Shown: positions 1,047 through 58,221 of the stretch, piece after piece | Numbering within the stretch: position 1 is the first letter of the stretch | How the letters are laid out: each line of letters opens with the position of its first letter | Assembly: GCA_030699935.1 (NCBI GenBank) | Contig: JAUYKS010000002.1 | Span: forward strand, 65,018 to 129,017 | Direction: 5' to 3' | Length of the DNA: 64,000 nucleotides | From: a bacterium | GTDB taxonomy: Bacteria > Patescibacteriota > SICC01 | The notes under the pieces: model-generated | Told to the model about the DNA's origin: nothing | What the model saw: the letters and a program-made list of their open reading frames with translations, nothing else | Database searches by the model: none | Translations under genes and position numbers: made by a program

Positions 1047-1092
1047 TTGAGCGGAGGCTGCATTGTAAGTAGACTGGAAAGTTACTTCCTAA

Positions 1093-3126
1093 ATGCGCAT
1101 GCAAGAAGAATCACCCGACACAACTTTGGCAGACGAGGAAAACGCTGACCTCACTGGTGCAGCTGACTTCACGAGCGAAGAAGCGTCCGAAGATGAAGCT
1201 GACATTGAAGATGCGTTGGCGGAACTAGAGTCCGTCCTCAAGGAAAGACCGGCGGACTCGAACGGCAGCGGGGAGCTGACGGAGGGCGTGGCGGTCGTGT
1301 TCGATTCGGCTGACGAAGAACCGGAGCCCTCGCCCGAAGTGAGCCGGGAAGAGGGAATCCGGTCGAAAGTGTCGGAGCTGCTGCAAATCGCCGCGGAACG
1401 ATGCTCCACTACGACGAAGGACATGCGCGGACGCGGGCGCTCGATCCAGGCGGTCAGGGCCCGATGGGCCGCGGGACAGGCGCTTCGGCAAGCCGGTGTG
1501 CCGATAACGACGATCCGTGAAGCCCTCGACCGCGGTTCCGAAACCTCGACTTACCAGATGCTAAGGACGACTCGTCCGGATGCCATATCCGACTTACGGG
1601 CGATCCGCGAACGATTCGGGGATTGGACCTATCCCGAAGCGCCCGAAGCGCCCAAAGTGCCGGAATCGTTCGACCGGACGGCGGCGGAGCGGCTGGTCGT
1701 CGCGACCTTGAACTATTTCGGTACCGATCAAGCCGAACTTTCCAAGGTTCGGGGAAACAAGGCCGGCATGGATGCGCGCTGGGTCTCCGCGCAATTGTTG
1801 CGACATCTGAAAATACCGAAGATGGGCGTCAGGGACTTGCTGCACCGTCCGTCGATACAGTCCGTCTACTGTTTGTCTAACCGCCGGGCTCCGGAACTGC
1901 ACGGAGCGGTGGAGGAAATCTGGGAAGGCTTCCAGAACGGCGAGGACTTTTCTGAACGGGCCCGGCGTATCGCCGAAGCCCGGGCGGCGGCGGCGCGGCC
2001 GGAGCCGGAACCGGAAGAACCCCCGGCGCTTTCCGGCGAGGAAATCGACCGTCTGATCCTGACCGCGGCCAACTACGTCGGTGTCCGTCCGGAGCAAGTG
2101 ATCGACTCCCGAAAGAGCCGCCCGGAGGCGGTGCTGGCCCGAATCATCGTCCTGACGCTATTGGAAGAGGAACTCGGTATGCGGCGGAAGCATGTCGCCA
2201 AGCACTTCAACCGGGCGGCGGCATCCGTAACGTCCACGCTCCGCAACGACAACATCCGTCATTTGCTGCTCAACAACCAACGCGCGCGGATCGATATCCT
2301 CAAGGCGTTCAAGGCGGGAGATACGTTTGAGGAACGTGGCGAGGAGCTCTTGCGGGAACAGCGGGAGAAGGCGCGGAAGGAAGGCAAAGAACCTCCCTAT
2401 AGCCGCGAAGTCCCGGCGGAGGAGCGAGAGCTGTTCGAGCGGTTCAGCGAGGGGAAAGAAGACGCCGTGAAGACGGTCGAAGACGCGTACCTGCAGCCGG
2501 TGCAAGACGCGATGCGGAAACGTCTGGAGGGCTCCGCGATCGGTTTGCCGGAACGGAAGCCCCTGGAGGTCTTACACCTGACCGCCCGTAACTTCGCGCC
2601 CGTGGCCGAACGGCACCGGAACTTCAAGGAATGGGTATTGCGGGTCGCCCGTCAGGAAGCCGAGGAGATGCTCGAGACGGAACGGCAGAAGAAGAAGATG
2701 CGAGAGGTCGACACGCGGCGCTATTTCACGGAGACCTACGAAGCGTACCGATCGGGAAACGTCCGTGCCTCCATGGGGCGGGCCATCGACTTTAATAAGG
2801 AGGACGGCAAGCGGGTCATGGATACGGCTAAGTCGGTCTACGCTGCTGCCGCCGAAGCGGCCAAAAAGAAGCTGCCGATCCCGTACTATGAGTTCCAGCG
2901 CCAGATCAAGCTCCTCAACAAGACCAGCGTGATCCTGCAGGACCCCGAGAGAGCCAAGGGGAAGATCCCGGCTGAGTCCCTGGCCAGGCAGGTCACCCTG
3001 GGCGAATTCGAGGGTGAGAAACTGGAGGAGCTGCTCGGATTGTTGCTCGAATCGGTCGTCCGGGACGCCGGCCTCAAGCTGGGGACGAAGCCCGGGCCGA
3101 CGCGGAAGCCGAAAGTGCATATCTGA
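1093..3126 (+). CDS. Acidic hypothetical protein with three tandem DnaA C-terminal (domain IV)-like HTH repeats
   Basis: 677 aa with an extremely D/E-rich N-terminus. Three segments (approx aa 95-165, 205-275, 325-395) fit the DnaA_C pattern (…SR…aR…amyL…S…IG…HsTV…) but are divergent. Confidence 0.6.
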   Translation: MRMQEESPDTTLADEENADLTGAADFTSEEASEDEADIEDALAELESVLKERPADSNGSGELTEGVAVVFDSADEEPEPSPEVSREEGIRSKVSELLQIAAERCSTTTKDMRGRGRSIQAVRARWAAGQALRQAGVPITTIREALDRGSETSTYQMLRTTRPDAISDLRAIRERFGDWTYPEAPEAPKVPESFDRTAAERLVVATLNYFGTDQAELSKVRGNKAGMDARWVSAQLLRHLKIPKMGVRDLLHRPSIQSVYCLSNRRAPELHGAVEEIWEGFQNGEDFSERARRIAEARAAAARPEPEPEEPPALSGEEIDRLILTAANYVGVRPEQVIDSRKSRPEAVLARIIVLTLLEEELGMRRKHVAKHFNRAAASVTSTLRNDNIRHLLLNNQRARIDILKAFKAGDTFEERGEELLREQREKARKEGKEPPYSREVPAEERELFERFSEGKEDAVKTVEDAYLQPVQDAMRKRLEGSAIGLPERKPLEVLHLTARNFAPVAERHRNFKEWVLRVARQEAEEMLETERQKKKMREVDTRRYFTETYEAYRSGNVRASMGRAIDFNKEDGKRVMDTAKSVYAAAAEAAKKKLPIPYYEFQRQIKLLNKTSVILQDPERAKGKIPAESLARQVTLGEFEGEKLEELLGLLLESVVRDAGLKLGTKPGPTRKPKVHI

Positions 3127-3132
3127 CCCGCC

Positions 3133-3189
3133 ATACTAACGTCGTGCGAAAAGGACATTCTCGCAAGCACGCCGACCCCCTGATGCCGG
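3133..3189 (+). repeat. Direct repeat copy 1: degenerate duplicate of the 5' end of the PHP-domain gene (pseudo-start fragment)
   Basis: ~48/57 nt identical to 4588-4644. In frame it translates VRKGHSRKHADPLMP…, a degenerate copy of the PHP protein's first 15 residues (of 4599-5447), then hits a stop. Confidence 0.8.
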
Positions 3190-4587: not shown

Positions 4588-4644
4588 ATACTAACGTCGT
4601 GCGAAAAAGACACTCCCGGACTCATGCCGACCCCCTGATGCCGG
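4588..4644 (+). repeat. Direct repeat copy 2 (native 5' end and start of the PHP-domain gene)
   Basis: Matches 3133-3189 and contains the GTG start at 4599. Confidence 0.8.
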
Positions 4645-8181: not shown

Positions 8182-8244
8182 ACCCGAATAGCATACATGA
8201 CAACCCGCCCAGTCATCGAGGGCAGCCGGGGCATTGAACTGTCG

Positions 8245-9279
8245 TTAGTTTAGGCCCAGCCAGAAACGGGCGGATTCGGCCCAAGAGTTTCCGGTTCGCT
8301 GCTCGGCAGGATGCTCTTCAGCCGGCTGCATCGATTCGAATACCTTGATTATCTCTTCCTTCGGCAGTTGGCCGTCGAGAATTCCCTCCGTATCGCCGGT
8401 TTTGTAAGTGTAGCCGCCGAAGTCAGGGTCGGCGTAGATTGAACCGCTGTTTGTCTTGGCGTAAAACTGACACCCTTTCTGATCGGAGTACCCGTTGGCA
8501 GTCGGACCGCCGCAGTTTTCGGGAGGGTTGTATACGGAGGGTGATTCAAGCACCAGCACTTTGTAGAAGCCGTCATCGGATTCGTACCGTAAATCAACGA
8601 CGGGTTTGCCAGTAAAAGGTTCGTCATTAACGGATCGACTGAATAGCTTGTAGCCCGCAGGCTGGTAGGTGGGTATCAGCACGTTTTCCGGAGTGGTTTC
8701 TTTGACGACTTCGGTCTGGCGGCCCTGATCGGCGAAGGCCAGTCCCGCGTATATCACGATCATTCCGGCTACGGCCAGATAGAGCGGCCAACGGGTCTGC
8801 GCCTGCGGTTGCTCCACTCCTGGTTGAGTCGTCTTTACATACTGGTTGTAAGCGCGAAGCAAAGATCCCCAATAAGCCAGTAATGTCAGGTAACCGGCCA
8901 GCGTCAGCGTCACCAGGCCGCCTTTGATATAGAAAATGGTGAGCGCGCCGCATAGTCCTTCCAAGCAGTTTGTGATGGCGGAAATACGGAGTGCCACATA
9001 CAAGCCGATTATTGCGGCCAGACCGACTAGTCCAAACAAAAACGATAGACCGTGATAGGGGCGGAGGCCGAATTGCCAGCGCCAGTCATTTAGAACGCCA
9101 GTCAAACTTGTCTTCTCGGGGTTGATTCCCTGAGCGAGCTTAGGCCTGGTCACGAAGAACCAGTACAGCAGGTACGGAGGAAACAATGCGGCCAGAAGAA
9201 TATTGAGAAGGATCGGTTGCTTAATCGAGTGGCTCGCTTCCATGCGGCCATAGTACAACACCATTGACGTAAAGCCCAA
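8245..9279 (-). CDS. Hypothetical polytopic membrane protein with Cys-containing C-terminal extracytoplasmic domain
   Basis: 4+ TM helices. GC noticeably lower (~50-52%) than neighbours. The true start may be internal (MEASHS…). Confidence 0.5.
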   Translation of the reverse strand: MGFTSMVLYYGRMEASHSIKQPILLNILLAALFPPYLLYWFFVTRPKLAQGINPEKTSLTGVLNDWRWQFGLRPYHGLSFLFGLVGLAAIIGLYVALRISAITNCLEGLCGALTIFYIKGGLVTLTLAGYLTLLAYWGSLLRAYNQYVKTTQPGVEQPQAQTRWPLYLAVAGMIVIYAGLAFADQGRQTEVVKETTPENVLIPTYQPAGYKLFSRSVNDEPFTGKPVVDLRYESDDGFYKVLVLESPSVYNPPENCGGPTANGYSDQKGCQFYAKTNSGSIYADPDFGGYTYKTGDTEGILDGQLPKEEIIKVFESMQPAEEHPAEQRTGNSWAESARFWLGLN

Positions 9280-9310
9280 AAAGTGTTATCATTAAGCAAT
9301 TTTTCCGAGG
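9264..9310 (+). promoter_or_regulatory. Conserved promoter block, copy A: TTGACG-N17-TATCAT + taagcaatttt leader
   Basis: Shares the -35/-10 architecture and downstream AATTTT block with copies at 38580, 52946 and 55766. Confidence 0.5.
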
Positions 9311-9317
9311 TTTTTCA

Positions 9318-9346
9318 TTGACAGATGAGGAACCGGCCGATATGCT
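9318..9346 (+). promoter_or_regulatory. Second tandem promoter upstream of nrnA (TTGACA-N17-TATGCT)
   Basis: Consensus -35 with 17-nt spacer. Confidence 0.4.
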
Positions 9347-9380
9347 GGCAAGTTCATTTCACCGAGTCCGTACGTAACCC

Positions 9381-10823
9381 ATGGAACTAAGTCCCAAACA
9401 ACAAGTCACCGAATTGGTCAGGAAGTTCGATAACGTCCTGATCGTTACGCACGCCCGTCCCGACGGCGATGCGATCGGTTCGGCCTTGGCGATGCACCTC
9501 GTGCTCGAGCAGCTCGGCAAGCACCCGACGACGATCATCCGCGACGACATCCCGGGGATGTTCCGGTTCCTGCCGGCGCTCGACAAGGTCACCAAGGACC
9601 TGACCGGCAGCCGCGACCTCGTCGTCAGCGTGAACACGGCGCGGACCAAGGTCGACAAGCTGAAGTACAACACGACCGAAGACCGGCTGAACGTGGTGAT
9701 CTCGCCGAAGGACGGCCAGTTCGCCGACAAGGACGTGGACGTCCGACAGGGCGCGTACAGCTTCGACTTAGTAATCGTCCTCGACGCGCCCGATCTCGAC
9801 CGCCTCGGTTCGCTCTACGAGGACAACCCGGACCTCTTTTACGAGGCGCCGGTGGTGAACATCGACCATCATCCGTCGAACGACTACTTCGGCGCGGTGA
9901 ACCTGGTCGACCTCACCGCGACCTCGACTTCGGAGATCCTGGTCGGCGTAATCGAAGCGCTCGGCGAATCGCTGATGACCGAGGACGTGGCGACGCTGCT
10001 CCTGACCGGACTGATCACCGACACCGGCAGCTTCCAGAACGCCAACACCACCCCGAAGTCGCTGACCGTCAGCGCCCAACTGGTGGCCCAGGGCGGCCGG
10101 CAGCAGGAGATCGTCCAGCATTGCTACAAGACCAAGCCGCTCTCGACGCTGCGGCTCTGGGGCCGGGCCCTGACGCGGCTTCAGTACGATCCGACCACCC
10201 GCGTCGTCTGGGCCAGCTTGACCAACGCGGACTTCAAGGAGACGGGCGGTACGCCGACCGAAGCGAAGGAAGTGATCGACTCGTTGATGAGCTCCGCGCC
10301 GGACGCCGAAGTGATCCTGCTGCTCCGTGAACGCGAGGACGGACGGGTCGACGGCAGCGTCCACACCACCAAGGGCGTCGATGCCACCAAGGTAGTCGGC
10401 TTCTGGAACGGCGGCGGCCATAAGGGCGCGGCCGGTTTCGACACCGACGGTCCGCTCGAGAACGCGGAACGCAACGTGGTGCTCCAGGTCAAGAAATGGC
10501 AGGCGCAGCGCCTCGGCGTACAAGGCCCGACCGAGAACACCTCGTCCGGCCGCTCGCAGACCGCGGATCTGCCGCCCCGCCCCGCCGAACAAGTCCCGAC
10601 CCGGCCGACGCGCCAGCCGCAGCGTCCTAACCGGCCGCGTCAGAACGGCATGGTCAGCGGCGGCGTAGCCGGCAAGGCGCCTTCGAAACCGCCGCAGCAA
10701 CCGGACCAGCAACCCCAGCAACCGCTCTCCGATGACGAACTGGACGCCTACTTCAAGAAATCGTCCGGTCCGAACGGCCAAGTCATCGACCAGCAGCCGA
10801 AACGGGACGATGGCCGCAGCTGA
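9381..10823 (+). CDS. nrnA: DHH/DHHA1 phosphoesterase (NrnA-like oligoribonuclease/pAp phosphatase) with P/Q-rich C-terminal tail
   Basis: …VTHARPDGDAIGS… DHH motif. …GGGHKGAAGF… DHHA1 motif. ~110-aa low-complexity tail. Confidence 0.8.
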   Translation: MELSPKQQVTELVRKFDNVLIVTHARPDGDAIGSALAMHLVLEQLGKHPTTIIRDDIPGMFRFLPALDKVTKDLTGSRDLVVSVNTARTKVDKLKYNTTEDRLNVVISPKDGQFADKDVDVRQGAYSFDLVIVLDAPDLDRLGSLYEDNPDLFYEAPVVNIDHHPSNDYFGAVNLVDLTATSTSEILVGVIEALGESLMTEDVATLLLTGLITDTGSFQNANTTPKSLTVSAQLVAQGGRQQEIVQHCYKTKPLSTLRLWGRALTRLQYDPTTRVVWASLTNADFKETGGTPTEAKEVIDSLMSSAPDAEVILLLREREDGRVDGSVHTTKGVDATKVVGFWNGGGHKGAAGFDTDGPLENAERNVVLQVKKWQAQRLGVQGPTENTSSGRSQTADLPPRPAEQVPTRPTRQPQRPNRPRQNGMVSGGVAGKAPSKPPQQPDQQPQQPLSDDELDAYFKKSSGPNGQVIDQQPKRDDGRS

Positions 10824-12425: not shown

Positions 12426-12722
12426 ATGACCGAACTCGCATCAGAATCAGAATCGTTTGAAGCCGACGAGCGTCAGCAATACGAAGCCGGCCGTGCCGAG
12501 GTACTTACCGCCATCGCCGCCGGCGAATACGATCCGGCGACGACACCGCAGGAAATCGCCGAGAAGACCGGAGTCGGCCTGATCAACGTCCGGCAACTCA
12601 CGTTCGGCATGATCGCGTACCGGGAAATCACCTGGGGTACCGACCCCGAAACCGGCATATTACGGATGGTACTGACCGAATCCGGCGAGGAACACCTGGC
12701 CCGATTCGCCGAGACCTGCTAG
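12426..12722 (+). CDS. Small acidic hypothetical protein
   Basis: 98-aa ORF between truB and rpsO. Confidence 0.4.
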   Translation: MTELASESESFEADERQQYEAGRAEVLTAIAAGEYDPATTPQEIAEKTGVGLINVRQLTFGMIAYREITWGTDPETGILRMVLTESGEEHLARFAETC

Positions 12723-12735
12723 TCTGAAACCCGTT

Positions 12736-13002
12736 ATGCCCACAACCGAGCAGAAATCAGCCGTTATCAAGGAGCACGCCACGTCGAAGGACGACGTCGG
12801 TTCGGCTCCCGTGCAGATCGCGCTGTTGACGGCCCGGATCACCGAGCTGACCGGTCACATGAAGGCGCATCCGAAGGACAACCACTCGGAGCGCGGATTG
12901 GAGCTGCTGGTGGGCAAACGACGCCGACTCCTGGACTATCTCGCCCGTACGGACGAGCCGGCCTACCAGGAATTGGTAAAGAAGCTTAAGCTGCGCAAGT
13001 AG
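12736..13002 (+). CDS. rpsO: 30S ribosomal protein S15
   Basis: Canonical S15 sequence (…GSAPVQIALLTARITELTGHMKAHPKDNHSERGL…). Confidence 0.9.
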   Translation: MPTTEQKSAVIKEHATSKDDVGSAPVQIALLTARITELTGHMKAHPKDNHSERGLELLVGKRRRLLDYLARTDEPAYQELVKKLKLRK

Positions 13003-13149
13003 CGATTAATAAGGATCGTTTAATAATTTAATTCATAAGCGGCACGGAGCGTGTCGAGACCTGAGCGCCGAAGGACGATCGGAACGACCGACGAGACAAC
13101 CCTTCGACTCCCGGACTTCTACATGCTCCCGCCACGATAGGAGGAACGC

Positions 13150-15372
13150 ATGTTCAACGTGCAAACCGCAGAAGGAGCCTTCGGCTCCGAGACACTGAAG
13201 TATGAGACCGGCAAGCTTGCCGGATTAGCCGACGGCGCCGTCCGGGCGCAGTACGGCGACACCGTCGTCCTGGTGACGGCCGTGGTCGGCGACCAGAAGC
13301 CGGGATTCGATTACTTCCCGATGATGGTCAGCTACGAGGAGAAGATGTACGCCGCGGGCAAGATCTCCGGCGGATTCTTCAAGCGCGAAGGCCGGCCCAG
13401 CGAGGAAGCGACCCTGATCTCGCGGCTGATCGACCGGCCGATCCGGCCGCTGTTCCCGAAGGGGACGCGCAACAATATCCAGGTGATCGCGACGGTCCTG
13501 TCCGTCGACGGCATCCATCACCCCGACATGGTGGCGATGAACGCGGCGTCGACGGCGCTGCATCTGGCCGGCTCTCCGATGGTCGAGATGATCGGCGGCG
13601 TCCGGATCGGCGAGATCGACGGCGAGCTGATTGTGAACCCGACAGAGGAACAGCGCGAGCAGTCGAAGCTGGACCTGGTCGTCGCCGGCACCAAGGAAAA
13701 GATCATGATGGTCGAGGCCGGTGCCAACGAAGTCACCGAGGAGCGGATGCTGAAGGCGTTCGACCTGGCCCTGGCCGAGATCCGGAAAGCGATCGCGATC
13801 CAAGAGGAGATCGTCGGTAAGGTCGCGCCGGAGAAGCGCGAGCCGGCCCTGGCCGAGACCGACCCCGACCTCGAGCGCGAAGTCGCCGAGAAGACCCGGA
13901 CGAAGTTGCTCGAGATCACGCTGAACTCCACGCAGGAGGAACGCGAGAAGAAGATCGCCGAGCTGACCGGCTGGCTGAAGGAGGAACTGGTTCCGGAAGA
14001 AGCGGCCGAGGATGCGAAGTGGACCGCCGGACAAGTCACGGACGCGTTCACCAAGGTCGAACAGGAGACGATCCGCGAGGCGATCCTGAAGCACGATGTG
14101 CGCCCGGACGGACGCAAGCTCACCGAGATCCGTCCGATCAGCTGTGAAGTCGGCGTACTGCCGCGCACCCACGGCTCGGCGCTGTTCACGCGCGGCCAGA
14201 CCCAGGCGCTGTCGCTGACCACGCTCGGCACCCCGGGCGACCAGCAGATCATAGACACCATGCTCGAGGACACGAAGCGGCGTTACATGCACCACTACAA
14301 CTTCCCGCCGTACTCGGTCGGCGAAGCGCGGCCGGTGCGCGGCGCCGGTCGCCGCGAGATCGGCCACGGGGCGCTCGCGGAACGGGCGATCTTCCCGATG
14401 CTTCCGGAGCAGGACGACTTCCCGTACACGATGCGGGTGGTCAGCGAGATCCTGGCCTCGAACGGCTCGACCTCGATGGCTTCGGTCTGCGGCTCGACCC
14501 TCTCGCTGATGGACGCGGGCGTGCCGATCAAGAAGCCGGTCTCCGGCATCGCGATGGGACTGGTTACCGACGGCGACACCACCAAGGTACTCACCGACAT
14601 CCAGGGCGCCGAGGACTTCGCCGGCGATATGGACTTCAAGGTCGCCGGTACCAAGGACGGCATCACCGCGTTGCAGATGGACATGAAGGTCTGGGGCATC
14701 CCGCTGGAAGTGATGACGCAGGCGCTCGAGCAGGCCAAGACGGCCCGCCTCGAGATTATGGACAAGATCCTGGCGACGATCCCGGAACCGCGGGCGGACC
14801 TGGCGGCCAACGCGCCGCGCATCACGACGATGAAGATCGACCCGGAGAAGATCCGGATCGTGATCGGACCGGGCGGCAAGATGATCAACGAAATCACCGC
14901 CGAGACCGGCGTCTCGATCGACCTCGAGGACGACGGCACCGTGATGATCGGCTCCAGCGACGGCGAAGCCTCCAAGAAGGCGATGGAATGGATCAAGGCG
15001 CTCACCGCCGAGCCGGAAGTCGGCAAGGTCTACGACGGCAAGGTCACCAAGCTGATGCCGTTCGGCGCGTTCGTCGAGTTCATGCCGGGCAAGGAAGGCA
15101 TGGTCCACGTCTCGCAGATCGCCGACGAACGGGTGGCTTCGGTCGAAGACGTGCTCAAGGTCGGCCAGGAAGTGAAGGTCATGGTGATCGAAGTCGATTC
15201 CCAGGGCCGGAACAACCTCTCGATCAAGGCGGCGGCCAGCGGCGCCGACCCGAAGGTGATCGCCGACGAAGTCCGACAGTCGCGTGCGCCCCGCAACGGT
15301 GGCGGCGGTCGGGAACGCGGCGGCCCGGGAGGCGGTTTTCGCCGCGGCCCCGGCGGACCCCCGCGACGGTAG
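13150..15372 (+). CDS. pnp: Polynucleotide phosphorylase with G/R-rich C-terminal tail
   Basis: Two RNase PH domains, then KH and S1 domains. 740 aa. Classic rpsO-pnp arrangement. RBS ggagga. Confidence 0.95.
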   Translation: MFNVQTAEGAFGSETLKYETGKLAGLADGAVRAQYGDTVVLVTAVVGDQKPGFDYFPMMVSYEEKMYAAGKISGGFFKREGRPSEEATLISRLIDRPIRPLFPKGTRNNIQVIATVLSVDGIHHPDMVAMNAASTALHLAGSPMVEMIGGVRIGEIDGELIVNPTEEQREQSKLDLVVAGTKEKIMMVEAGANEVTEERMLKAFDLALAEIRKAIAIQEEIVGKVAPEKREPALAETDPDLEREVAEKTRTKLLEITLNSTQEEREKKIAELTGWLKEELVPEEAAEDAKWTAGQVTDAFTKVEQETIREAILKHDVRPDGRKLTEIRPISCEVGVLPRTHGSALFTRGQTQALSLTTLGTPGDQQIIDTMLEDTKRRYMHHYNFPPYSVGEARPVRGAGRREIGHGALAERAIFPMLPEQDDFPYTMRVVSEILASNGSTSMASVCGSTLSLMDAGVPIKKPVSGIAMGLVTDGDTTKVLTDIQGAEDFAGDMDFKVAGTKDGITALQMDMKVWGIPLEVMTQALEQAKTARLEIMDKILATIPEPRADLAANAPRITTMKIDPEKIRIVIGPGGKMINEITAETGVSIDLEDDGTVMIGSSDGEASKKAMEWIKALTAEPEVGKVYDGKVTKLMPFGAFVEFMPGKEGMVHVSQIADERVASVEDVLKVGQEVKVMVIEVDSQGRNNLSIKAAASGADPKVIADEVRQSRAPRNGGGGRERGGPGGGFRRGPGGPPRR

Positions 15373-16158: not shown

Positions 16159-17748
16159 ATGGCAGCTAGGAAGGAAAAGCGTCGGTTACGGAACTCCGTG
16201 ACCAGTATCCAGTCGATACCAGCGTTGGTCGCGGGCTTGCTGTTGCTCGCGGCGGGAACGGCATTGTGGCTAACCCTGGCAGGTGCCGCCGTGACCAAGG
16301 ACCTCTTCGTGAAGCTGCCGGAAAACAGCCGGATCGCTGGCGTGGCCCGTCTGGCGGCGTTCGACTACGGGACGCTGGAACAAGTGAGTTCGTCGGCCGC
16401 GATCTATCCAGACGAGGTCAAAGCCCTGATGCCGGTCATCCGGACCGCCGCCCCGCCGGAACTGATCGGCCAGGCGTTGGGAGACGAGATCGGGTTCGCC
16501 CGGACGCCGGACGGACGGACGCTGGCTGTCGCTACCGTGCGGGATAACGCCCTCTATTCGCAATTGGCCGCCGCGGTTTACGAACAGTTGGACGGCGCCA
16601 AGCAGGTCAAGGTTGACACGCCGGAACGCGGCCGGCTGACGTTTGCTGCGGGTCGTTTGCCGGGCTCGAAGATCACGATCTTCTCCTATCGCGAGGGAAG
16701 TTACGTCTACTTCGCGACGGACCGGAACCAGATCCTGGCGGCGCTGCACCGCACCGAAGGGTTCGACCGGCACGAACATTTCGCGGAAGTTTCGGGCGAT
16801 CTGCCGGGCTCGCAGGACGCGTACGTATTCCTGGACAGCGCGTTGTCCGAGCGGTATCCGCGACTGGAATTCTCGTTGGTCGGATTGGCGATCAAGGAGG
16901 ATGACGGGACGCTGCGGATCGAAGCGGCCAACGACGGCCCGCCGCCGGCCCGGGCCGAACTCAAGCGGACATCCGGCGATCTGCTGCCGCCCGTTTCCGC
17001 CGCCCCGGTCAGCATCTCTGGAACCGACGCCGCCGGGTTCTTCCGGCTGTTGGAGGAGCAGCGGTCGGCGCAGGATCTTCCCGGCGTGTTACGGTTCCAG
17101 AACGGCGTCGCGGCCCTGGACCGCCAGCTCGGGATCGACATAGAACGCGAATATCTGGCCGCCGCGGACGGTCCGTTCGTCTACGCGCGGTATCGGGACG
17201 GCGGCAAGGGGACTAAGGGCGCGAAAGCCGGTGCGCGACAGTGGATGGTGCTGCTCGAGTTCGACAGTCCGGAAAATGCCCGGCAAAAGACCGCGGAACT
17301 GCAACGCCTCCTGAAGACGAAGGCGAGAGTCCCGGTGCGCCGCGAAGTGGTCAAGGTCCTTCCCGACGGGACGCGCTCCCGGGAGATCGAATCGCAGCGG
17401 AACGAGCCGTTGTCCATCAAGACAGTGACGGTCGAGCGCCGGCCGGCCGCCTCGGCGCAGTTCCCGTCGATGGGCCGGTTGGTCTGGCAGGTGCGCGGTC
17501 CCCATCTCCTGATCGGCAGCTCGGAAGAAGCGGTCGCCAGGCTGGTGCGCAATCTGGCGGATCCGTCGCCAGCGGACGCGAAAGGACAGCTCGTGACCAG
17601 GATCGACCTGGCCGAAGCGGCATCCGTGACCGGCCAGGAGGACGGGCTCCTTGCCTGGATCCTGTTCGCCCGTCCCGAACGCGGCAGCTTCTCGCTCGAC
17701 AAGGCGACCGGGGAACTTACCGGCGGCATGACGTTCCCGGAGCGCTGA
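16159..17748 (+). CDS. Hypothetical membrane-anchored extracytoplasmic protein
   Basis: Single N-terminal TM helix, 529 aa. Extended -10 (tgcTACAAT) just upstream. Confidence 0.5.
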   Translation: MAARKEKRRLRNSVTSIQSIPALVAGLLLLAAGTALWLTLAGAAVTKDLFVKLPENSRIAGVARLAAFDYGTLEQVSSSAAIYPDEVKALMPVIRTAAPPELIGQALGDEIGFARTPDGRTLAVATVRDNALYSQLAAAVYEQLDGAKQVKVDTPERGRLTFAAGRLPGSKITIFSYREGSYVYFATDRNQILAALHRTEGFDRHEHFAEVSGDLPGSQDAYVFLDSALSERYPRLEFSLVGLAIKEDDGTLRIEAANDGPPPARAELKRTSGDLLPPVSAAPVSISGTDAAGFFRLLEEQRSAQDLPGVLRFQNGVAALDRQLGIDIEREYLAAADGPFVYARYRDGGKGTKGAKAGARQWMVLLEFDSPENARQKTAELQRLLKTKARVPVRREVVKVLPDGTRSREIESQRNEPLSIKTVTVERRPAASAQFPSMGRLVWQVRGPHLLIGSSEEAVARLVRNLADPSPADAKGQLVTRIDLAEAASVTGQEDGLLAWILFARPERGSFSLDKATGELTGGMTFPER

Positions 17749-22608: not shown

Positions 22609-24423
22609 TCATTGCGTGACCGGTTCGCACGGGCCGCTGGCCGAATCACAGACCACCTCGCGCCAGCCTCCGACGGCGAAGCTGCCGCCGGGGCCGTTGC
22701 TGAAGTTGATATCGTTCAGGCCGGAGACGTAGGTCACCACCGCGTTGTTGTCCAGCACCAGCCGGTTCGCGGTCAGGGCATTCGCGCCCGCGTTATTGTG
22801 CAGCCGGATCGTCCCCTTCGGCGCGGCCAGGATGATGTTGGTCGCGTTGTTCGAGACGTCGATCGCGTTGTCGGACGTACTGGTGGTCCCGAGCAGCAGG
22901 AAGCTGTTCGGCGTGCCGCTGCCGGTGAAGAGTACGTTGTTGCTGATGGTGACCGTCCCGTCCCCGACGATGACGCCGCTGTCCGCGCCGTAGCCGGGAT
23001 CGAGCACGATGGTCGCGTTGTTCGAGAACAGCATCGTTCCGGTCACATACAGGGTCCCCGTTATCCGCAAGGTGGAGCCGTTCTCGACGGTCAGGTTTCC
23101 GTCGATCTTGAGCGGCCCCATCGTCTGGCTCGTGCCGAGGGCGATCGTCACGTCACCGGTGTACGTTCCGCCCGACGCTCCCTGGGTCTTGAAGTCGATG
23201 ATGTTGGCGTCGGTGATCGGCAAGTCTCGCTGCGGCGGGTCCTCGCTGCCGGGGAAGCTGCTGCCGGCGATCGTGGAACCGTTGTCGGCCTGGAAGTACG
23301 CGTCGCCGCCCACGGTGAGCTGGTTAAGCGTGTTGGCATGGACATCTCCGCCGATGTCGACGCCTTGGGCGTAGGTCGGCGGGCTGCCCATGAACGCTTT
23401 GAACGCGAAGTCCTTACCGACCGGACTCCAGGTCATCGTCCCGCTGCTCCGCCAGCGGTCGGAGCTCTTGCCGGTGCCGTTCGGGTAACCGTTGTCATCG
23501 CCGACGCCCCAGGCCCAGTAGTTCGTCGCGGACCCGGACGTGTCGACGACGATCCAGTACTTCTGGCCGTTCGTCAGGGTCGGAGGGTTCGTCAGGCTGA
23601 CGTCGATGAATTGCAGGGTCGATCCGACCGACGACGCGTTCAGCGTGCCGCCGGCGACCTGCGTCCCAGAAGGTTGGTTGTTGTTGTCGGTGACGATCCG
23701 GATGGTCGCGTTGGCCGGATTGCCGAATTTCTTCACCTTGAGCGCCACCTTGACCAGCTTGCCGCTCTGGGACGTGTCGGCGGTGAACGCTTGGGCGACA
23801 TCGATCACGTTAGGACTGGAAGATTTCCCGAAGATGAAGTCGGTCACCGTGGCCGGATCGTGCTCGGGTGACGCGTCGGGGGCTGCCGTTCCGGCCACCC
23901 AGACGTCTCCCGACACAGAGGCGTTGTTCTCACCCGTGTGGTTGCCGTTGGAATAAGTGCTACCGATGATATCGGCGTTGTTGCCCATGGTAATGCCACC
24001 GGCACCGGCCTGCAGAGCGTATACGAAGTCCGCGTCGACCGACGGCTGCGGGCAGTCGTCGACCTGGATCCGTCGGACCAGCGTGTCATGATAGCCGGAC
24101 GCCATGATCTGGCGGACGTCCTGGCACGATTCCGTGTCGATCGTCTCGACCCTGTATTCGGTGCGGTTCCGGTCGTCGAAGGATGTCTCTACGGTGGCAC
24201 CGCCCGCTCCGAATCCCGGGCTGCGCTTTACCTGCAGCAGGCCGTCCTCGACGCCGCTCTCGGCGTTCACGATGCTCTGCGTCGAATCCAACCGCTCCTG
24301 GCTCTGCTGCATGGAGAGAACGGAAGTGGTCACCATCGCGCTGCCGATCACCACGATGATCGCGGAAAAGATCATCACCCCGAGGATGCCGACGACGCCG
24401 GACTGACCGCGTCCTCTGATCAT
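22609..24423 (-). CDS. Large pilus-associated protein: N-terminal hydrophobic anchor + beta-helix-like repetitive domain (ComGG/PilX-like non-canonical minor pilin or tip adhesin)
   Basis: Last gene of a four-gene operon after three prepilins. N-terminus GQSGVVGILGVMIFSAIIVV lacks Glu5. Long N/T/G-rich pseudo-repeats (…NNATIVLDPG…NNVLFTGSG…NNATNIILAAP…NNAGANALTAN…). Confidence 0.6.
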   Translation of the reverse strand: MIRGRGQSGVVGILGVMIFSAIIVVIGSAMVTTSVLSMQQSQERLDSTQSIVNAESGVEDGLLQVKRSPGFGAGGATVETSFDDRNRTEYRVETIDTESCQDVRQIMASGYHDTLVRRIQVDDCPQPSVDADFVYALQAGAGGITMGNNADIIGSTYSNGNHTGENNASVSGDVWVAGTAAPDASPEHDPATVTDFIFGKSSSPNVIDVAQAFTADTSQSGKLVKVALKVKKFGNPANATIRIVTDNNNQPSGTQVAGGTLNASSVGSTLQFIDVSLTNPPTLTNGQKYWIVVDTSGSATNYWAWGVGDDNGYPNGTGKSSDRWRSSGTMTWSPVGKDFAFKAFMGSPPTYAQGVDIGGDVHANTLNQLTVGGDAYFQADNGSTIAGSSFPGSEDPPQRDLPITDANIIDFKTQGASGGTYTGDVTIALGTSQTMGPLKIDGNLTVENGSTLRITGTLYVTGTMLFSNNATIVLDPGYGADSGVIVGDGTVTISNNVLFTGSGTPNSFLLLGTTSTSDNAIDVSNNATNIILAAPKGTIRLHNNAGANALTANRLVLDNNAVVTYVSGLNDINFSNGPGGSFAVGGWREVVCDSASGPCEPVTQ

Positions 24424-25889: not shown

Positions 25890-25970
25890 TTGTTTTCGTT
25901 CATCCGTTTTCGTCCCAAGTATATGCGAGTTTGCGCCCGTGCGAAGCCGGTCACCCTTATACTGATAGCC

Positions 25971-27785
25971 ATGGGTTCAAATCAGGAAAACATCCGCAAT
26001 TTCTGCATCATCGCGCATATCGACCACGGCAAGTCCACGCTGGCCGACCGGCTGCTCGAGCTGACCGGCACGGTCCAGAAGCGCGACATGCAGGATCAGC
26101 TGCTGGACTCGATGGAACTCGAGCGGGAACGCGGCATCACGATCAAGCTCCAGCCGGTGACGATGCAGTGGACCCCGAAGGCCGCCGGATCGGACGCTCC
26201 GCTGACGATGAACCTGATCGACACGCCGGGGCACGTCGACTTCTCTTACGAGGTCTCGCGGACGTTGTCGGCTTGCGAGGGGGCGCTGCTGCTGGTCGAC
26301 GCCACGCAAGGCATCCAAGCCCAGACGCTGGCCCACGCGACGCAGGCGAAGGCGCAGGGGCTCACGCTGATTCCCGTTATCAACAAGATCGACCTGCCGG
26401 CCGCCGAACCGGAGGACACCGCCCTGGCGATCGCCGAGACGTTGGAGATTTCCGCGGACGACGTGATCTTCATCTCGGCCAAGACCGGCGAGGGCGTGGA
26501 CGAGGTCCTGCAGGCGATCGGGGATCGTGTTCCCGCGCCGGAAGGCCAGGCCGGTGCGCCGCTCCGGGCGTTGGTATTCGACTCGCGTTACGATCCGTAC
26601 CAGGGCGTGGTCGCCTCAGTTCGGGTGGTCGACGGCTCGTTGCCGGCCCGCTCGAAGATCAAGCTGATGGCGGTCGGAAAGTCGGCGGAGTCGAACGACG
26701 TCGGCGTGCTGCGGCCGCAGCCGGAGGCGCGACCGCAGCTGGAAACCGGCGAGATCGGCTACCTGGTCACGGGATTCAAGTCGATCGTCGAAGTCCGGGT
26801 CGGCGACACGGTGACGCTGGCGGCGGAGCCGGCCGGCGAGCCGCTGCCCGGCTACCGCGAAGTCTCACCGATGGTGTTCGCCGGAATCTTCCTGGAGTCG
26901 TCCGGCGGCGACTTCGGCAAGCTCCGCGAAGCGCTCGGCAAGCTGGCGCTCAACGACGCCTCGCTCAGCTACGAGCCGGTGCAGTCGCAGGCGCTCGGCC
27001 AAGGCTTCCGGGCCGGCTTCCTCGGGCTGCTCCACCTCGACATCATCCGCGAGCGGCTGACGCGCGAATTCAATCTGAACCTGGTGGTTACCGCGCCGAC
27101 GGTACCGTACGAGATTCGGCTGACCGATGGCAGCGAGCTCACCCTGACCGACCCGGCCGAGCTGCCGGACGTGACCCGGATCGCCGAGATCCGCGAGCCC
27201 TGGGCGGAGTTGGAGATCGTCTGCCGGTCGCAGGACCTCGGCGCCGTCCAGCGGCTGATTGCCGACCGACGCGGCACGTTCGGCGACACGCGGTTCGCCG
27301 CTTCCGAGCGAGTGATCGTCAAGGCGGAAGTCCCGCTCGCCAACCTGGTCGCCGACTTCTACGATCAGCTCAAGGGAGCGACCGCCGGATACGGGTCGCT
27401 CTCATACGAACTCACCGACTTCCGTCCGGCCCCGTTAGTCCGCCTGGACTTCCTGGTCGCGGGCGACGCGGTCTCCGGACTCTCGGTAATCGTCCACAAG
27501 AGCGAAAGCGACCGCCGGTCGCGGGCGGTGTTGGCAAAACTCAAGGAGGTCATCCCGCCGGCGATGTTCCAGATCGCCTTACAAGCGGTCGTCGGCGGAA
27601 AGGTGTTGGCCCGCGAGGACATCAGCGCCCGCAAGAAGGACGTGACCGCCGGGCTGTACGGCGGCGACGTCACCCGGAAGCGCAAGCTTCAGGAGAAGCA
27701 GAAGAAGGGCAAGGCCCGAATGAAGTCCGAAGGCAGCGTGCGCGTGCCGCCGGAGGCGTTCGTGGCGGTGCTCAAGCAGGACTGA
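25971..27785 (+). CDS. lepA: Elongation factor 4 (LepA)
   Basis: NFCIIAHIDHGKSTLADRLL… GTPase G1-G4 motifs, LepA C-terminal domain. Start at Met226 of the listed ORF; the upstream extension is rejected. Confidence 0.95.
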   Translation: MGSNQENIRNFCIIAHIDHGKSTLADRLLELTGTVQKRDMQDQLLDSMELERERGITIKLQPVTMQWTPKAAGSDAPLTMNLIDTPGHVDFSYEVSRTLSACEGALLLVDATQGIQAQTLAHATQAKAQGLTLIPVINKIDLPAAEPEDTALAIAETLEISADDVIFISAKTGEGVDEVLQAIGDRVPAPEGQAGAPLRALVFDSRYDPYQGVVASVRVVDGSLPARSKIKLMAVGKSAESNDVGVLRPQPEARPQLETGEIGYLVTGFKSIVEVRVGDTVTLAAEPAGEPLPGYREVSPMVFAGIFLESSGGDFGKLREALGKLALNDASLSYEPVQSQALGQGFRAGFLGLLHLDIIRERLTREFNLNLVVTAPTVPYEIRLTDGSELTLTDPAELPDVTRIAEIREPWAELEIVCRSQDLGAVQRLIADRRGTFGDTRFAASERVIVKAEVPLANLVADFYDQLKGATAGYGSLSYELTDFRPAPLVRLDFLVAGDAVSGLSVIVHKSESDRRSRAVLAKLKEVIPPAMFQIALQAVVGGKVLAREDISARKKDVTAGLYGGDVTRKRKLQEKQKKGKARMKSEGSVRVPPEAFVAVLKQD

Positions 27786-27804
27786 CCAACGACCGTTCCC
27801 ATCC

Positions 27805-27833
27805 TTGACAAGTAGGCAATAATTGGCTATACT
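27805..27833 (+). promoter_or_regulatory. Promoter TTGACA-N17-TATACT
   Basis: Near-consensus sigma-70 promoter 20 nt upstream of ATG 27854. Confidence 0.5.
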
Positions 27834-56429: not shown

Positions 56430-57058
56430 ACGTCGACCTCACCAATCTCCGGATCAAGCCGGAGCAGCGGTTCTACTACCTGATCGCCGGGAACGTGGTC
56501 ATCCTGGCCCTGATCGGAATCTTCGTGCTGCGTCCGGTGATGGGACTGCTCAACAAGCACGCCGACCAGATGACGGCGATGAAGGCGGACATCGCCACCG
56601 CCCAGCAGAAGATGGATACCTTGCGCAAGCTGAAGGCATCGCTGCCGGCGACCAAGGCGGTGTACGCGCCGGTGATCAGGAACGCGCCGAAACACAAGGA
56701 CATCGCCGGATACCAGACCGAGCTCGAGGACCTGGCGGCGTTGACCCGGGTCGACCTCATCACGGTCGATACCAGCGGCGCAGCCAAGGGTCAGAGCCCG
56801 GCCGCGGCCCAGACCGACCTGACGGTCGGCGGTTTCCCGGCCTTCCCGGTCAGCATCGACGTCTCCGGCAGTTACGCGAACACTTTGGACTTCGTGAACC
56901 GGCTCGAGACCATGGACCGGTTCACGCGGGTCGTCGCCCTGAGTTTTGTCCAGGCCGACACCTCCGGCGAGGTCAAGCTGACGATCACCGCGCAGTCGTT
57001 GTACTTCGGCGGCGCGGACACGACGAGTAAGACTGGTAAGGCGGGGAAGGCATCATGA
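56426..57058 (+). CDS. pilO: Type IV pilus assembly protein PilO
   Basis: N-terminal TM helix, coiled coil, PilO-like C-terminal domain; ATGA coupling to pilN. Confidence 0.65.
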   Translation: MNVDLTNLRIKPEQRFYYLIAGNVVILALIGIFVLRPVMGLLNKHADQMTAMKADIATAQQKMDTLRKLKASLPATKAVYAPVIRNAPKHKDIAGYQTELEDLAALTRVDLITVDTSGAAKGQSPAAAQTDLTVGGFPAFPVSIDVSGSYANTLDFVNRLETMDRFTRVVALSFVQADTSGEVKLTITAQSLYFGGADTTSKTGKAGKAS

Positions 57059-58221
57059 GATACCTGCGCTACCCGCGTCCGCGAAAAATCCTCGGTTCGA
57101 TCCGGCGGTTTGTCTTCCGGGCCGATCATGCCCTGATGGCGCTGGTCGGCAAAGCGGATGAAGGGGTCGTCGGTTTCGTGGAATGGGTCGAGCACGGCAT
57201 CGGCCGGATGACCCGGGCGGTCGTTGCCGCGGAACGTTTGGGGGCGCGGAAGGTCGTCGCGGCCCTCCGCATCGCGATCAGCCCCGTGCTGTACCTCGTC
57301 CGGACGGTGGTCGCACAACTGGTGTTCGAGGTCGCCGCGGTATGCGGAGGCGTCTTCCGCGCCCCGGGCCGTCTTGGCCGGTCCGCCGAAGCCCTCGTCG
57401 CCTACTGGACGGCGGGCGTGTGGCGCTTCTTCGGACGGATCACGCTCTGGGTGAGCGCTCCGATCCGCAAACGCGTCGCCAACCGCGCGAAGCGGCAAGC
57501 GCTCGACGCGGTCACTATGACCCCGGACCATAAGTCGCATCGCGAATTGCTGGCGTTGCTCGTTGTCGCCGCCGTCCTGATCGCCGGCGCGGCCGTACTG
57601 TTCGGAGGCGACCTGCTGTCCAGTAACGTCCTTTCCGGCATCTTCCAGCTGGAGCGTTTGGCCGGATTGCCGTCAGCGGCGTGGCACTGGGCCGTCACCC
57701 TCTCTCCGATCAAGCTGACGGTGATGTTCGCCGCCGCCGCGCTGACCGCCGCCACGATCGTCTTCTGGTTCCGGATGTTGCGCGACAGCTACCGCCGCGA
57801 ATATCCGACCGCGGTCGAGCAGACCCAATGGCGTCTCGTCACGACACTGTTGTTCATCCCGGGCGCGGTGCTGTACTTCTTCAAGCAATACAACCGACTC
57901 ACCGTACGGAAGTTCGCGGCCCGTCACGTCGTCTCCCTGATGGTCAGCGGCGTCACCGTGCTGGTGGCCACCTCGACCTATGGCACGCTTTGGTACTTCA
58001 ACCAGCAGGCCGCGGCGGAAGTGGCCGGTGCCGGTTACCAGGCTCCGGTAATCCGGCTTGATCCGAACGATCGCCGCCAGATCCTTTCCCGCGACCAATA
58101 TGGCCAGCCGCTAAAGCCGGCCACGACCAGCCGCCGCGACCCGTTCGCGCCGATCCCCGGCGAAACGACGGAGGCAGCGCCGAGTCCGTCACCGAGTCCG
58201 ACGTCGGCGCCGCAGCCCTGA
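57055..58221 (+). CDS. Hypothetical polytopic membrane protein with P/S/T-rich C-terminus, co-operonic with pilNO
   Basis: ATGA overlap with pilO; multiple TM helices. Confidence 0.45.
   Translation: MRYLRYPRPRKILGSIRRFVFRADHALMALVGKADEGVVGFVEWVEHGIGRMTRAVVAAERLGARKVVAALRIAISPVLYLVRTVVAQLVFEVAAVCGGVFRAPGRLGRSAEALVAYWTAGVWRFFGRITLWVSAPIRKRVANRAKRQALDAVTMTPDHKSHRELLALLVVAAVLIAGAAVLFGGDLLSSNVLSGIFQLERLAGLPSAAWHWAVTLSPIKLTVMFAAAALTAATIVFWFRMLRDSYRREYPTAVEQTQWRLVTTLLFIPGAVLYFFKQYNRLTVRKFAARHVVSLMVSGVTVLVATSTYGTLWYFNQQAAAEVAGAGYQAPVIRLDPNDRRQILSRDQYGQPLKPATTSRRDPFAPIPGETTEAAPSPSPSPTSAPQP

Follow-up and report, generated by a model that had tools for sequence, protein, structure and literature searches.

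DnaA domain-IV-type units combined with a predicted sigma region-2-like domain in a Saccharimonadia protein encoded next to polA

A stretch of 64,000 nucleotides (nt) from a bacterium of the Patescibacteriota (assembly GCA_030699935.1, contig JAUYKS010000002.1), here called the window, carries directly 3' of polA an open reading frame (ORF), gene X. Its 677-amino acid (aa) product, X, joins three helix-turn-helix (HTH) units of the DnaA domain-IV type to a domain with the predicted fold of sigma factor region 2. The order from the N- to the C-terminus is an acidic tail, the three HTH units, a linker, the sigma region-2-like domain and a helical C-terminal domain (Table 1). X is a novel domain architecture assembled from known modules, and it is restricted to uncultivated bacteria of one very small clade. 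An earlier note on this DNA, made from the sequence alone, had described a tandem array of three modules of the DnaA domain-IV type, with no AAA+ domain beside them, and had called the architecture non-standard. Our comparisons support both statements: the modules were recovered by a hidden Markov model (HMM) of the units, by hhalign and by profile matches to DnaA domain IV, and their combination with the other known modules is found only in a tiny family. With a probability of about 40%, we propose that X is a transcription-type regulator, modular, DNA-binding and specific to its lineage, that has either RNA polymerase or a sigma-like partner as its docking site.

Sequence comparisons identify in X three homologous units of ~80 aa of the DnaA domain-IV type, termed R1, R2 and R3; the direct evidence within X alone is thin, and the assignment comes from several converging lines. 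A pairwise alignment of R1 and R2 showed 30% identical aa over 84 aa (E 2.5e-7). Profile comparisons with hhalign related R2 to R3 with a probability of 97% (E 2.6e-11), R1 to R2 with 96% (E 2.1e-9) and R1 to R3 with 46% (E 2e-4). The unit borders were taken from an iterative HMM seeded with R3, whose later rounds were self-trained and were not used as sole evidence. A search of X with Pfam Bac_DnaA_C (PF08299) revealed one stretch, aa 319-382 in R3, with 23.8 bits, which is under the gathering cut-off of 31.5 bits, and the R1 and R2 segments of the window protein, scanned singly with Pfam, gave no match. Three relatives exceeded this cut-off (P0007: 111 bits, 4 stretches; P0006: 57 bits, 3 stretches; P0004: 49 bits, 2 stretches). 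Direct Pfam matches to the DnaA C-terminal pattern, which had been suggested for each segment, are thus limited to R3, below the cut-off, and to the relatives. The NCBIfam DnaA equivalogs matched X residues 319-385 only, with 15 bits against cut-offs of 410-657, and no AAA+ domain, Bac_DnaA or DnaA domain I was detected in X with Pfam and NCBIfam at E values up to 10.

A phmmer search of the whole X protein against PDB sequences gave no match. Position-specific profiles of R1, R2 and R3 each ranked DnaA domain IV first among natural PDB sequences, in register and with E values of 0.003-0.04 (Aquifex 1l8q/2hcb, M. tuberculosis 3pvp, Thermotoga 2z4r). TALE repeat proteins were the top PDB match of the R2 profile and designed repeat proteins that of the R1 profile; both were rejected, as they score at most 5 bits per stretch and reach their totals by summing over 5-13 repeats. 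The structure of X was predicted with AlphaFold2 (AF2) from seven family sequences only, with a mean predicted local distance difference test score (pLDDT) of 74.7 and a predicted template modelling score (pTM) of 0.35; a model from the single sequence had a mean pLDDT of 43 and was not used. In the seven-sequence model the units of X adopt the three-dimensional fold of DnaA domain IV, and they are joined by linkers with pLDDT below 50 (residues 148-161, 184-191 and 301-310). The net charges of R1, R2 and R3 in the window protein are +6, +6 and +3, compared with +3 for domain IV of E. coli DnaA. R3 is the sole unit present in every family member, and the family alignment showed R320, L321, L323, T324, A326, N327, G330, R350, L357, R374 and S378 to be invariant in it.

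The residues of DnaA domain IV that contact bases are reportedly R399, P423, D433, H434, T435 and H439 (E. coli numbering, Fujikawa et al. 2003). We aligned 20 units with E. coli domain IV, the sequence of which was checked for length and numbering; HMMER alignments of the units to Aquifex and Thermotoga DnaA served as a second comparison, and the alignment to the Aquifex segment KRKDHTTVIHAIR agreed with the first. P423, D433, H434, T435 and H439 are conserved in no unit of any family member. The D433-H434-T435 triplet is replaced by GSE, PSI or AAA, and the 'H.TV' signature that had been read into the units is absent from all three (R1 'GSETSTY', R2 'PSIQSVY', R3 'AAASVTS'). The arginine equivalent to R399 is retained by R1 and missing from R2 and R3. 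What the units do keep is an Arg or Lys equivalent to R407, the Arg equivalent to R432 and the hydrophobic pattern of helix alpha-1 with its Y-[FY]-G. DnaA boxes (TTATCCACA, at most one mismatch) are not enriched in the 64-kb window, which contains neither oriC nor dnaA of this genome: 7 sites were found with 3.9 expected, 10 of 100 shuffled sequences reached 7, and no site lies near gene X. By these residues X probably does not read DnaA boxes, and it is plausible that its units bind DNA with another specificity.

These results bear on a function considered in the earlier note, that of a regulator of replication initiation acting through its three modules on clusters of DnaA boxes, at oriC or at other sites. 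Such a protein might compete with DnaA or assist it. The units have the true fold of the DnaA DNA-binding domain, R1 has kept the R399-equivalent Arg of the basic loop, and X is fixed beside polA in a replication and repair neighbourhood (polA-PHP-fpg-holA). In opposition to this, the box-reading residues are gone from all units, boxes are not enriched in the window and none lies close to X, and conservation in X is highest in the sigma-2-like region, for which replication regulators have no equivalent. We therefore regard such a regulator as very unlikely.

R399 is also missing from HdaB of Caulobacter, a small DnaA-IV-like protein that binds HdaA and raises the frequency of initiation (bioRxiv 10.1101/712307). 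By analogy, the units of X could act as a decoy that titrates a partner of DnaA domain IV through protein contacts and not through DNA; R2 and R3 likewise have no R399 equivalent. HdaB, however, is a single-domain protein of Alphaproteobacteria, whereas X has 677 aa, several domains and net basic units in this genome. No Hda-like partner is known here, and a decoy leaves the sigma-2-like domain unexplained, so that of all explanations weighed here we consider this one the least probable.

The C-terminal half of X had been taken for a charged, coiled-coil-like region; the model predicts folded helical domains instead, one of which resembles sigma region 2. For this fold the predicted structure gives strong support, and the sequence weak support. 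Foldseek searches with the X model returned region 2 structures of sigmaE with probabilities of 0.75-0.99. These searches gave no query coordinates, and the fold was assigned to aa ~440-540 from the hhalign register and from a pattern of four predicted helices (442-452, 456-478, 489-507 and 511-538). Alignment with E. coli RpoE by hhalign was in register over RpoE residues 8-100 (E 0.003-0.016), and the family-invariant F511 and W514 fall on the F..W motif of RpoE. Two stretches of X are similar to extracytoplasmic function (ECF) sigma factors, EERELFERFSEGKEDAVKTVEDAYL to the start of these proteins and NFKEWVLRVARQEAEEML to the 'F..WL..IA.N' helix in them. The helical C-terminal domain that follows (aa 541-665) has no Pfam or PDB sequence match.

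An additional unit, R0, is found in P0004 (aa 108-143) and P0006 (aa 132-171) and is missing from the window protein. It passes the cut-offs of both Bac_DnaA_C and Sigma70_r4_2; that of the latter lies at 25.7 bits, and the two R0 units score 27.3 and 30.3. Judged from these scores, the double match of R0 reflects the closeness of the Bac_DnaA_C and Sigma70_r4_2 HTH families within the X family.

The acidic N-terminus noticed earlier is a constant feature of the family. Residues 1-90 of X comprise 30 D/E and 5 K/R, and the net charge of the tail lies between -19 and -30 in every family member (n=7 sequences). The pLDDT is below 50 across residues 1-82, so the model suggests that the tail is probably disordered.

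An exhaustive phmmer search among 1.84 billion representatives revealed six clusters of the X family at 50% identity. One member is identical to X (P0001), three show 40-46% identical aa (P0003-P0005) and two show 31% (P0006 and P0007); a word-indexed search found only P0001 and P0002 (93%). Searches with the family alignment and with an alignment of the C-terminal part gave just the two near-identical proteins or no match, probably because charged low-complexity words filled the filter of 8000 candidates. The relative with 43% identity is encoded in assembly GCA_025449535.1, a metagenome-assembled genome of a Candidatus Saccharimonadia bacterium, and the window hence very probably stems from a high-GC genome of the Saccharimonadia (TM7). 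The number of HTH units is 1, 3 or 4: the window protein has three, P0004, P0006 and P0007 have four, and P0005, a complete gene of 463 aa in the X slot, has one. Because P0005 keeps the slot with a single unit, the alignments indicate a constant core of the family, made up of the acidic tail, the last unit, the linker, the sigma-2-like domain and the C-terminal domain, with R0-R2 as accessory duplications. The invariant columns of the alignment concentrate in R3, the linker and the sigma-2-like domain. Comparison with the 93% ortholog gave a ratio of non-synonymous to synonymous substitution rates (dN/dS) of 0.49 overall, with the lowest value in the sigma-2-like domain (0.15) and 0.36 in R3; these ratios derive from 77 substitutions in total, and the values per region are rough.

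The variable unit number also suits an architectural or nucleoid-associated protein, in which a multi-HTH array would bridge or wrap DNA and the helical C-terminus would oligomerise. Several weakly specific HTH units on flexible linkers (pLDDT below 50), a unit number that varies between 1, 3 and 4 and the high charge of the protein would fit such a role. X is nevertheless net acidic as a whole (-11), the family is very narrow and fast-evolving, and conservation is highest in the sigma-2-like domain and not in the DNA-binding array, which makes an architectural function highly improbable.

X is a chromosomal, vertically inherited gene that is fixed directly 3' of polA in a small clade of Saccharimonadia. 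The gene order polA, X, PHP, small ORF, fpg, holA, rpsT has the same orientation at every locus with enough flanking sequence, down to relatives of 31% identity. A profile search for related loci with a family sub-alignment revealed one genome, and the same search in metagenome and viral contigs found nothing. Relatives of X are absent from phage genomes, plasmids and viral contigs, and PHROG and PADLOC searches gave no convincing match; together with the fixed chromosomal slot, this speaks against the phage-like inhibitor that the earlier note had considered.

In the mechanism that we propose, the HTH array would bind DNA at targets other than DnaA boxes, and the sigma-2-like domain would use RNA polymerase or a sigma-like protein, for example the product of the neighbouring ORF, as its docking site. 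In sigma factors, region 2 attaches to the beta-prime clamp helices of RNA polymerase, and the domain of X may use this surface as well. X could then recruit or redirect transcription, with the HTH array standing in for region 4 of ordinary sigma factors. Until X is engaged, its acidic tail may cover the basic HTH units, comparable to region 1.1 of sigma-70, which masks DNA-binding parts of that protein. We favour a regulator of the transcription type because the units are net basic and keep the R407 and R432 equivalents, because conservation peaks in R3, the linker and the sigma-2-like domain and P0005 retains exactly that core, and because a sigma-like gene with the same sigma-2-type module adjoins X in two genomes that are divergent, upstream in one and downstream in the other. 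GafA offers a precedent (see below), no mobile-element, phage or defence signal was found, and synteny is conserved. In a more specific form of this proposal X would be a new initiation or specificity factor, in which sigma-2 contacts core polymerase and the -10 element, the DnaA-type HTH array replaces region 4 and the tail resembles region 1.1, in some genomes together with a second, truncated partner of the sigma-2-only kind from the adjacent gene; this form we hold to be rather unlikely.

Several observations weigh against a regulator that docks on the transcription machinery. The Pfam model Sigma70_r2 matches two of the seven family members (best E 0.022, well under the cut-off; P0006: E 0.11), the hhalign probability against a single RpoE sequence is 3-9%, a profile search of X against PDB sequences returned no sigma factor, and the evidence for the fold depends on the seven-sequence AF2 model with its mean pLDDT of 74.7 and pTM of 0.35. 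Sigma region 4 was not found in aa 541-665, either by hhalign of aa 535-667 against RpoE or as Pfam Sigma70_r4 in the C-terminal half, and X is therefore not a conventional sigma factor. In some relatives the units are neutral or slightly acidic, and R1 and R2 are weakly constrained (dN/dS ~0.8-1.5, from just 5-15 changes). Moreover, the conserved neighbours are replication and repair genes and would fit a role in DNA metabolism equally well. Given the neighbourhood polA-X-PHP-fpg-holA, X may thus have a role in replication or repair, which would not operate through canonical recognition of DnaA boxes.

The position of X next to polA and to an inserted sigma-like gene, as stated in the earlier note, was confirmed. 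Gene X begins 46 nt past the stop codon of the polA fragment (DNA_pol_A, E 4e-138) and precedes an ORF of 395 aa with weak similarity to sigma factor region 2 (Table 1). Two direct repeats of 57 nt bracket this ORF; each consists of a TATACT-like hexamer and the first 15 codons of the PHP gene, and the pair marks an insertion in which the promoter and 5' end of PHP were duplicated. The ORF is regarded as an insertion because no gene lies between X and PHP at the loci of two relatives (L002 and L010); where the flanks of relatives are long enough for a judgement, this slot lacks the ORF. The locus of the 93% relative (L005) has the same insertion junction as the window.

Table 1. Position of gene X, its domains and adjacent features in the window
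Feature	Position	Strand	Basis
Candidate -10 hexamer (TAGACT) of an own X promoter	1070..1075	+	motif conserved across orthologous loci; putative promoter
Gene X, ORF including stop codon	1093..3126	+	ORF list; 677 aa; orthologs (31-93% identity) in equivalent syntenic slot
Acidic, probably disordered N-terminal tail, aa 1-88, net charge -26	1093..1356	+	composition; pLDDT; acidic in 7/7 family sequences
Unit R1, aa 89-167, DnaA domain-IV-type HTH, net charge +6, R399-equivalent Arg kept	1357..1593	+	unit HMM, profile and hhalign comparisons
Unit R2, aa 193-272, DnaA domain-IV-type HTH, net charge +6	1669..1908	+	unit HMM, profile and hhalign comparisons
Unit R3, aa 313-395, DnaA domain-IV-type HTH, most conserved unit	2029..2277	+	Pfam Bac_DnaA_C 23.8 bits, aa 319-382
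Conserved helical linker, aa 396-439, motif ILKAFKAGDT.EER	2278..2409	+	invariant I402, A405, F406, G409, T411; pLDDT 82-91
Predicted sigma factor region-2-like domain, aa ~440-540	2410..2712	+	
C-terminal helical domain, aa 541-665	2713..3087	+	pLDDT mostly 80-93
57-nt direct repeat, copy 1: -10-like hexamer and first 15 PHP codons, duplicated	3133..3189	+	copies 88% identical
Inserted sigma-like ORF, 395 aa	3362..4549	+	NCBIfam SigK over 234-313, E 3e-4; PHROG sigma factor, E 0.0015
57-nt direct repeat, copy 2: start of intact PHP gene (GTG 4599)	4588..4644	+	repeat pair, 1455 nt apart

The product of the sigma-like ORF has an acidic N-terminus and a stretch similar to sigma regions 1.2 and 2 at aa ~234-313, and it has no region 4. 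A homolog is encoded at another locus of the X family (L006, 9220..9942), between polA and X and thus upstream of X (42% over 100 aa, E 3e-19). Comparison of the C-terminal profile of X with this pair of sigma-like proteins by hhalign gave a probability of 58% (E 9.7e-5, 66 columns). X and a protein with sigma-2 only are hence recurrent neighbours in variable order, and these comparisons provide mild evidence for a functional connection. A recent tandem duplication of X as the origin of the sigma-like ORF was dismissed, as BLASTP revealed no similarity between the two and their only relation is a distant one, at profile level, in the sigma-2-type module.

The sigma-like domain of PhyR binds NepR, and in a similar manner the sigma-2-like domain of X might bind an anti-sigma-like or sigma-like partner, possibly the product of the neighbouring ORF, instead of RNA polymerase. 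X would then be a sigma mimic or partner switch whose HTH array tethers the complex or is sequestered in it. A sigma-like neighbour is present in just two of the examined lineages, though (the window with L005, and L006); L002 and L010 are free of extra ORFs here, and the additional ORFs of L007 are unrelated. With no receiver or sensor domain found in X and a mechanism that is wholly conjectural, we judge a partner switch to be unlikely.

The locus L007 has two extra ORFs between X and PHP, 12478..13146 (222 aa) and 13175..13333 (52 aa). The 222-aa ORF was considered as a carrier of further DnaA domain-IV units and rejected, as the repeat HMM gave no support and Pfam showed a weak generic HTH match only (MarR, E 8e-4).

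At its own 5' end, gene X probably starts at the second ATG (position 1099), which would give a protein of 675 aa, because the motif 'M.E..P' is invariant at the N-terminus of all seven aligned family sequences. A -10-like motif, GTA[GCT]A[CT]TG, is located ~25-35 nt 5' of the X start in all orthologous loci (L002, L006, L007, L009 and L010; ~1068-1076 in the window). Upstream of the PHP gene, a TATACT or CATACT hexamer lies ~6-8 nt 5' of the GTG start (4588-4593 in the window, with the duplicate at 3133-3138 and equivalents in the loci of the relatives). The short distance of this -10-like hexamer from the GTG suggests that PHP may be transcribed as a leaderless mRNA.

Apart from these features the window is ordinary chromosome with genes for the PHP phosphoesterase, fpg, holA, rpsT, a DHH phosphoesterase, truB, pnp, RNase J, dnaK, ruvB and an FtsX/MacB permease; it contains one tRNA, and no further Rfam match was found at gathering thresholds. 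Between rpsT and the DHH gene, a region at ~8200-9500 has a G+C content of 0.51-0.59, compared with ~0.65 in its flanks, and contains a 344-aa ORF on the reverse strand (8245..9279) with hydrophobic stretches and no Pfam match. No gene was called at this place in L001/L002 and L006, and the segment may be another insertion. Four candidate ORFs of 388-625 aa have no Pfam match at E values up to 1e-5 (16159..17748 (+), 22609..24423 (-), 25931..27808 (+) and 57055..58221 (+)); they may be spurious, since high-GC DNA yields long false ORFs, and alternative ORFs overlap some of them.

Episymbiotic bacteria of the candidate phyla radiation (CPR), including Saccharimonadia, have very small regulatory repertoires, and their control of transcription and replication is largely obscure. 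If the sigma-2-like domain of X docks on RNA polymerase, promoter recognition would have been rebuilt from a different HTH family, and X would offer a small, testable model of how sigma-like factors can be reassembled. If X is indeed an initiation factor, it would represent a sigma architecture not described before that evolved in the reduced genomes of Saccharimonadia. If it acts on the replication and repair genes beside polA, DNA metabolism in this group would have its first known regulator, one specific to the lineage. With six clusters among 1.84 billion representatives the distribution is narrow, and the general impact is limited accordingly.

A literature search for DnaA-IV-like proteins in Saccharibacteria revealed nothing specific, and the known systems that can be compared with X differ from it in distinct ways. 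Relative to domain IV of DnaA itself (PF08299; structures 1J1V, 3PVP/3PVV and 1L8Q), X has no detected AAA+ domain or domains I-III, occurs with one to four tandem copies of the unit, has replaced the residues that read the box and, in the window protein, stays under the Pfam cut-off. Compared with the sigma-70 family, in particular the ECF or group 4 factors, X has no detected region 3 or 4 and scores far under the cut-off for Sigma70_r2; its sigma-2-like domain is C-terminal to the DNA-binding modules, which is the reverse order, and is followed by an additional helical domain of 125 aa. HdaB and the numerous small phage proteins annotated as 'DnaA C-terminal', of which many with 80-190 aa match the X units structurally, share with X the presence of DnaA-IV-type modules without an AAA+ domain. 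These proteins are, in contrast to X, small, with a single or at most a double domain, and have neither a sigma-2-like domain nor an acidic tail, and X has no association with phages.

GafA of Rhodobacter capsulatus carries a DnaA-like HTH at its N-terminus and a sigma-like region that binds DNA at its C-terminus; it activates the genes of the gene transfer agent via the omega subunit of RNA polymerase (PMC9638019, Sherlock & Fogg 2022). Like X, it is modular and combines a DnaA-like HTH with a sigma factor-like region; its DnaA-type HTH controls transcription at targets that are not DnaA boxes, and the protein acts together with RNA polymerase. GafA differs from X in having a single DnaA-like HTH, in a sigma-like part that is a C-terminal HTH region and not region 2, and in contacting omega through its central region. 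GafA falls into DUF6456 families, which are alphaproteobacterial, whereas X has no DUF6456 match (Pfam, E up to 10), gave Bac_DnaA_C as its sole Pfam match in that search and has no detected sequence relation to GafA. X is thus a member of none of these families, be it GafA, HdaB or the small phage DnaA C-terminal proteins. As far as found in the literature searched, a tandem DnaA DNA-binding fold together with a sigma region-2-type domain has been described only loosely, in GafA, which by analogy of architecture, and in this respect alone, is the closest known idea to X.

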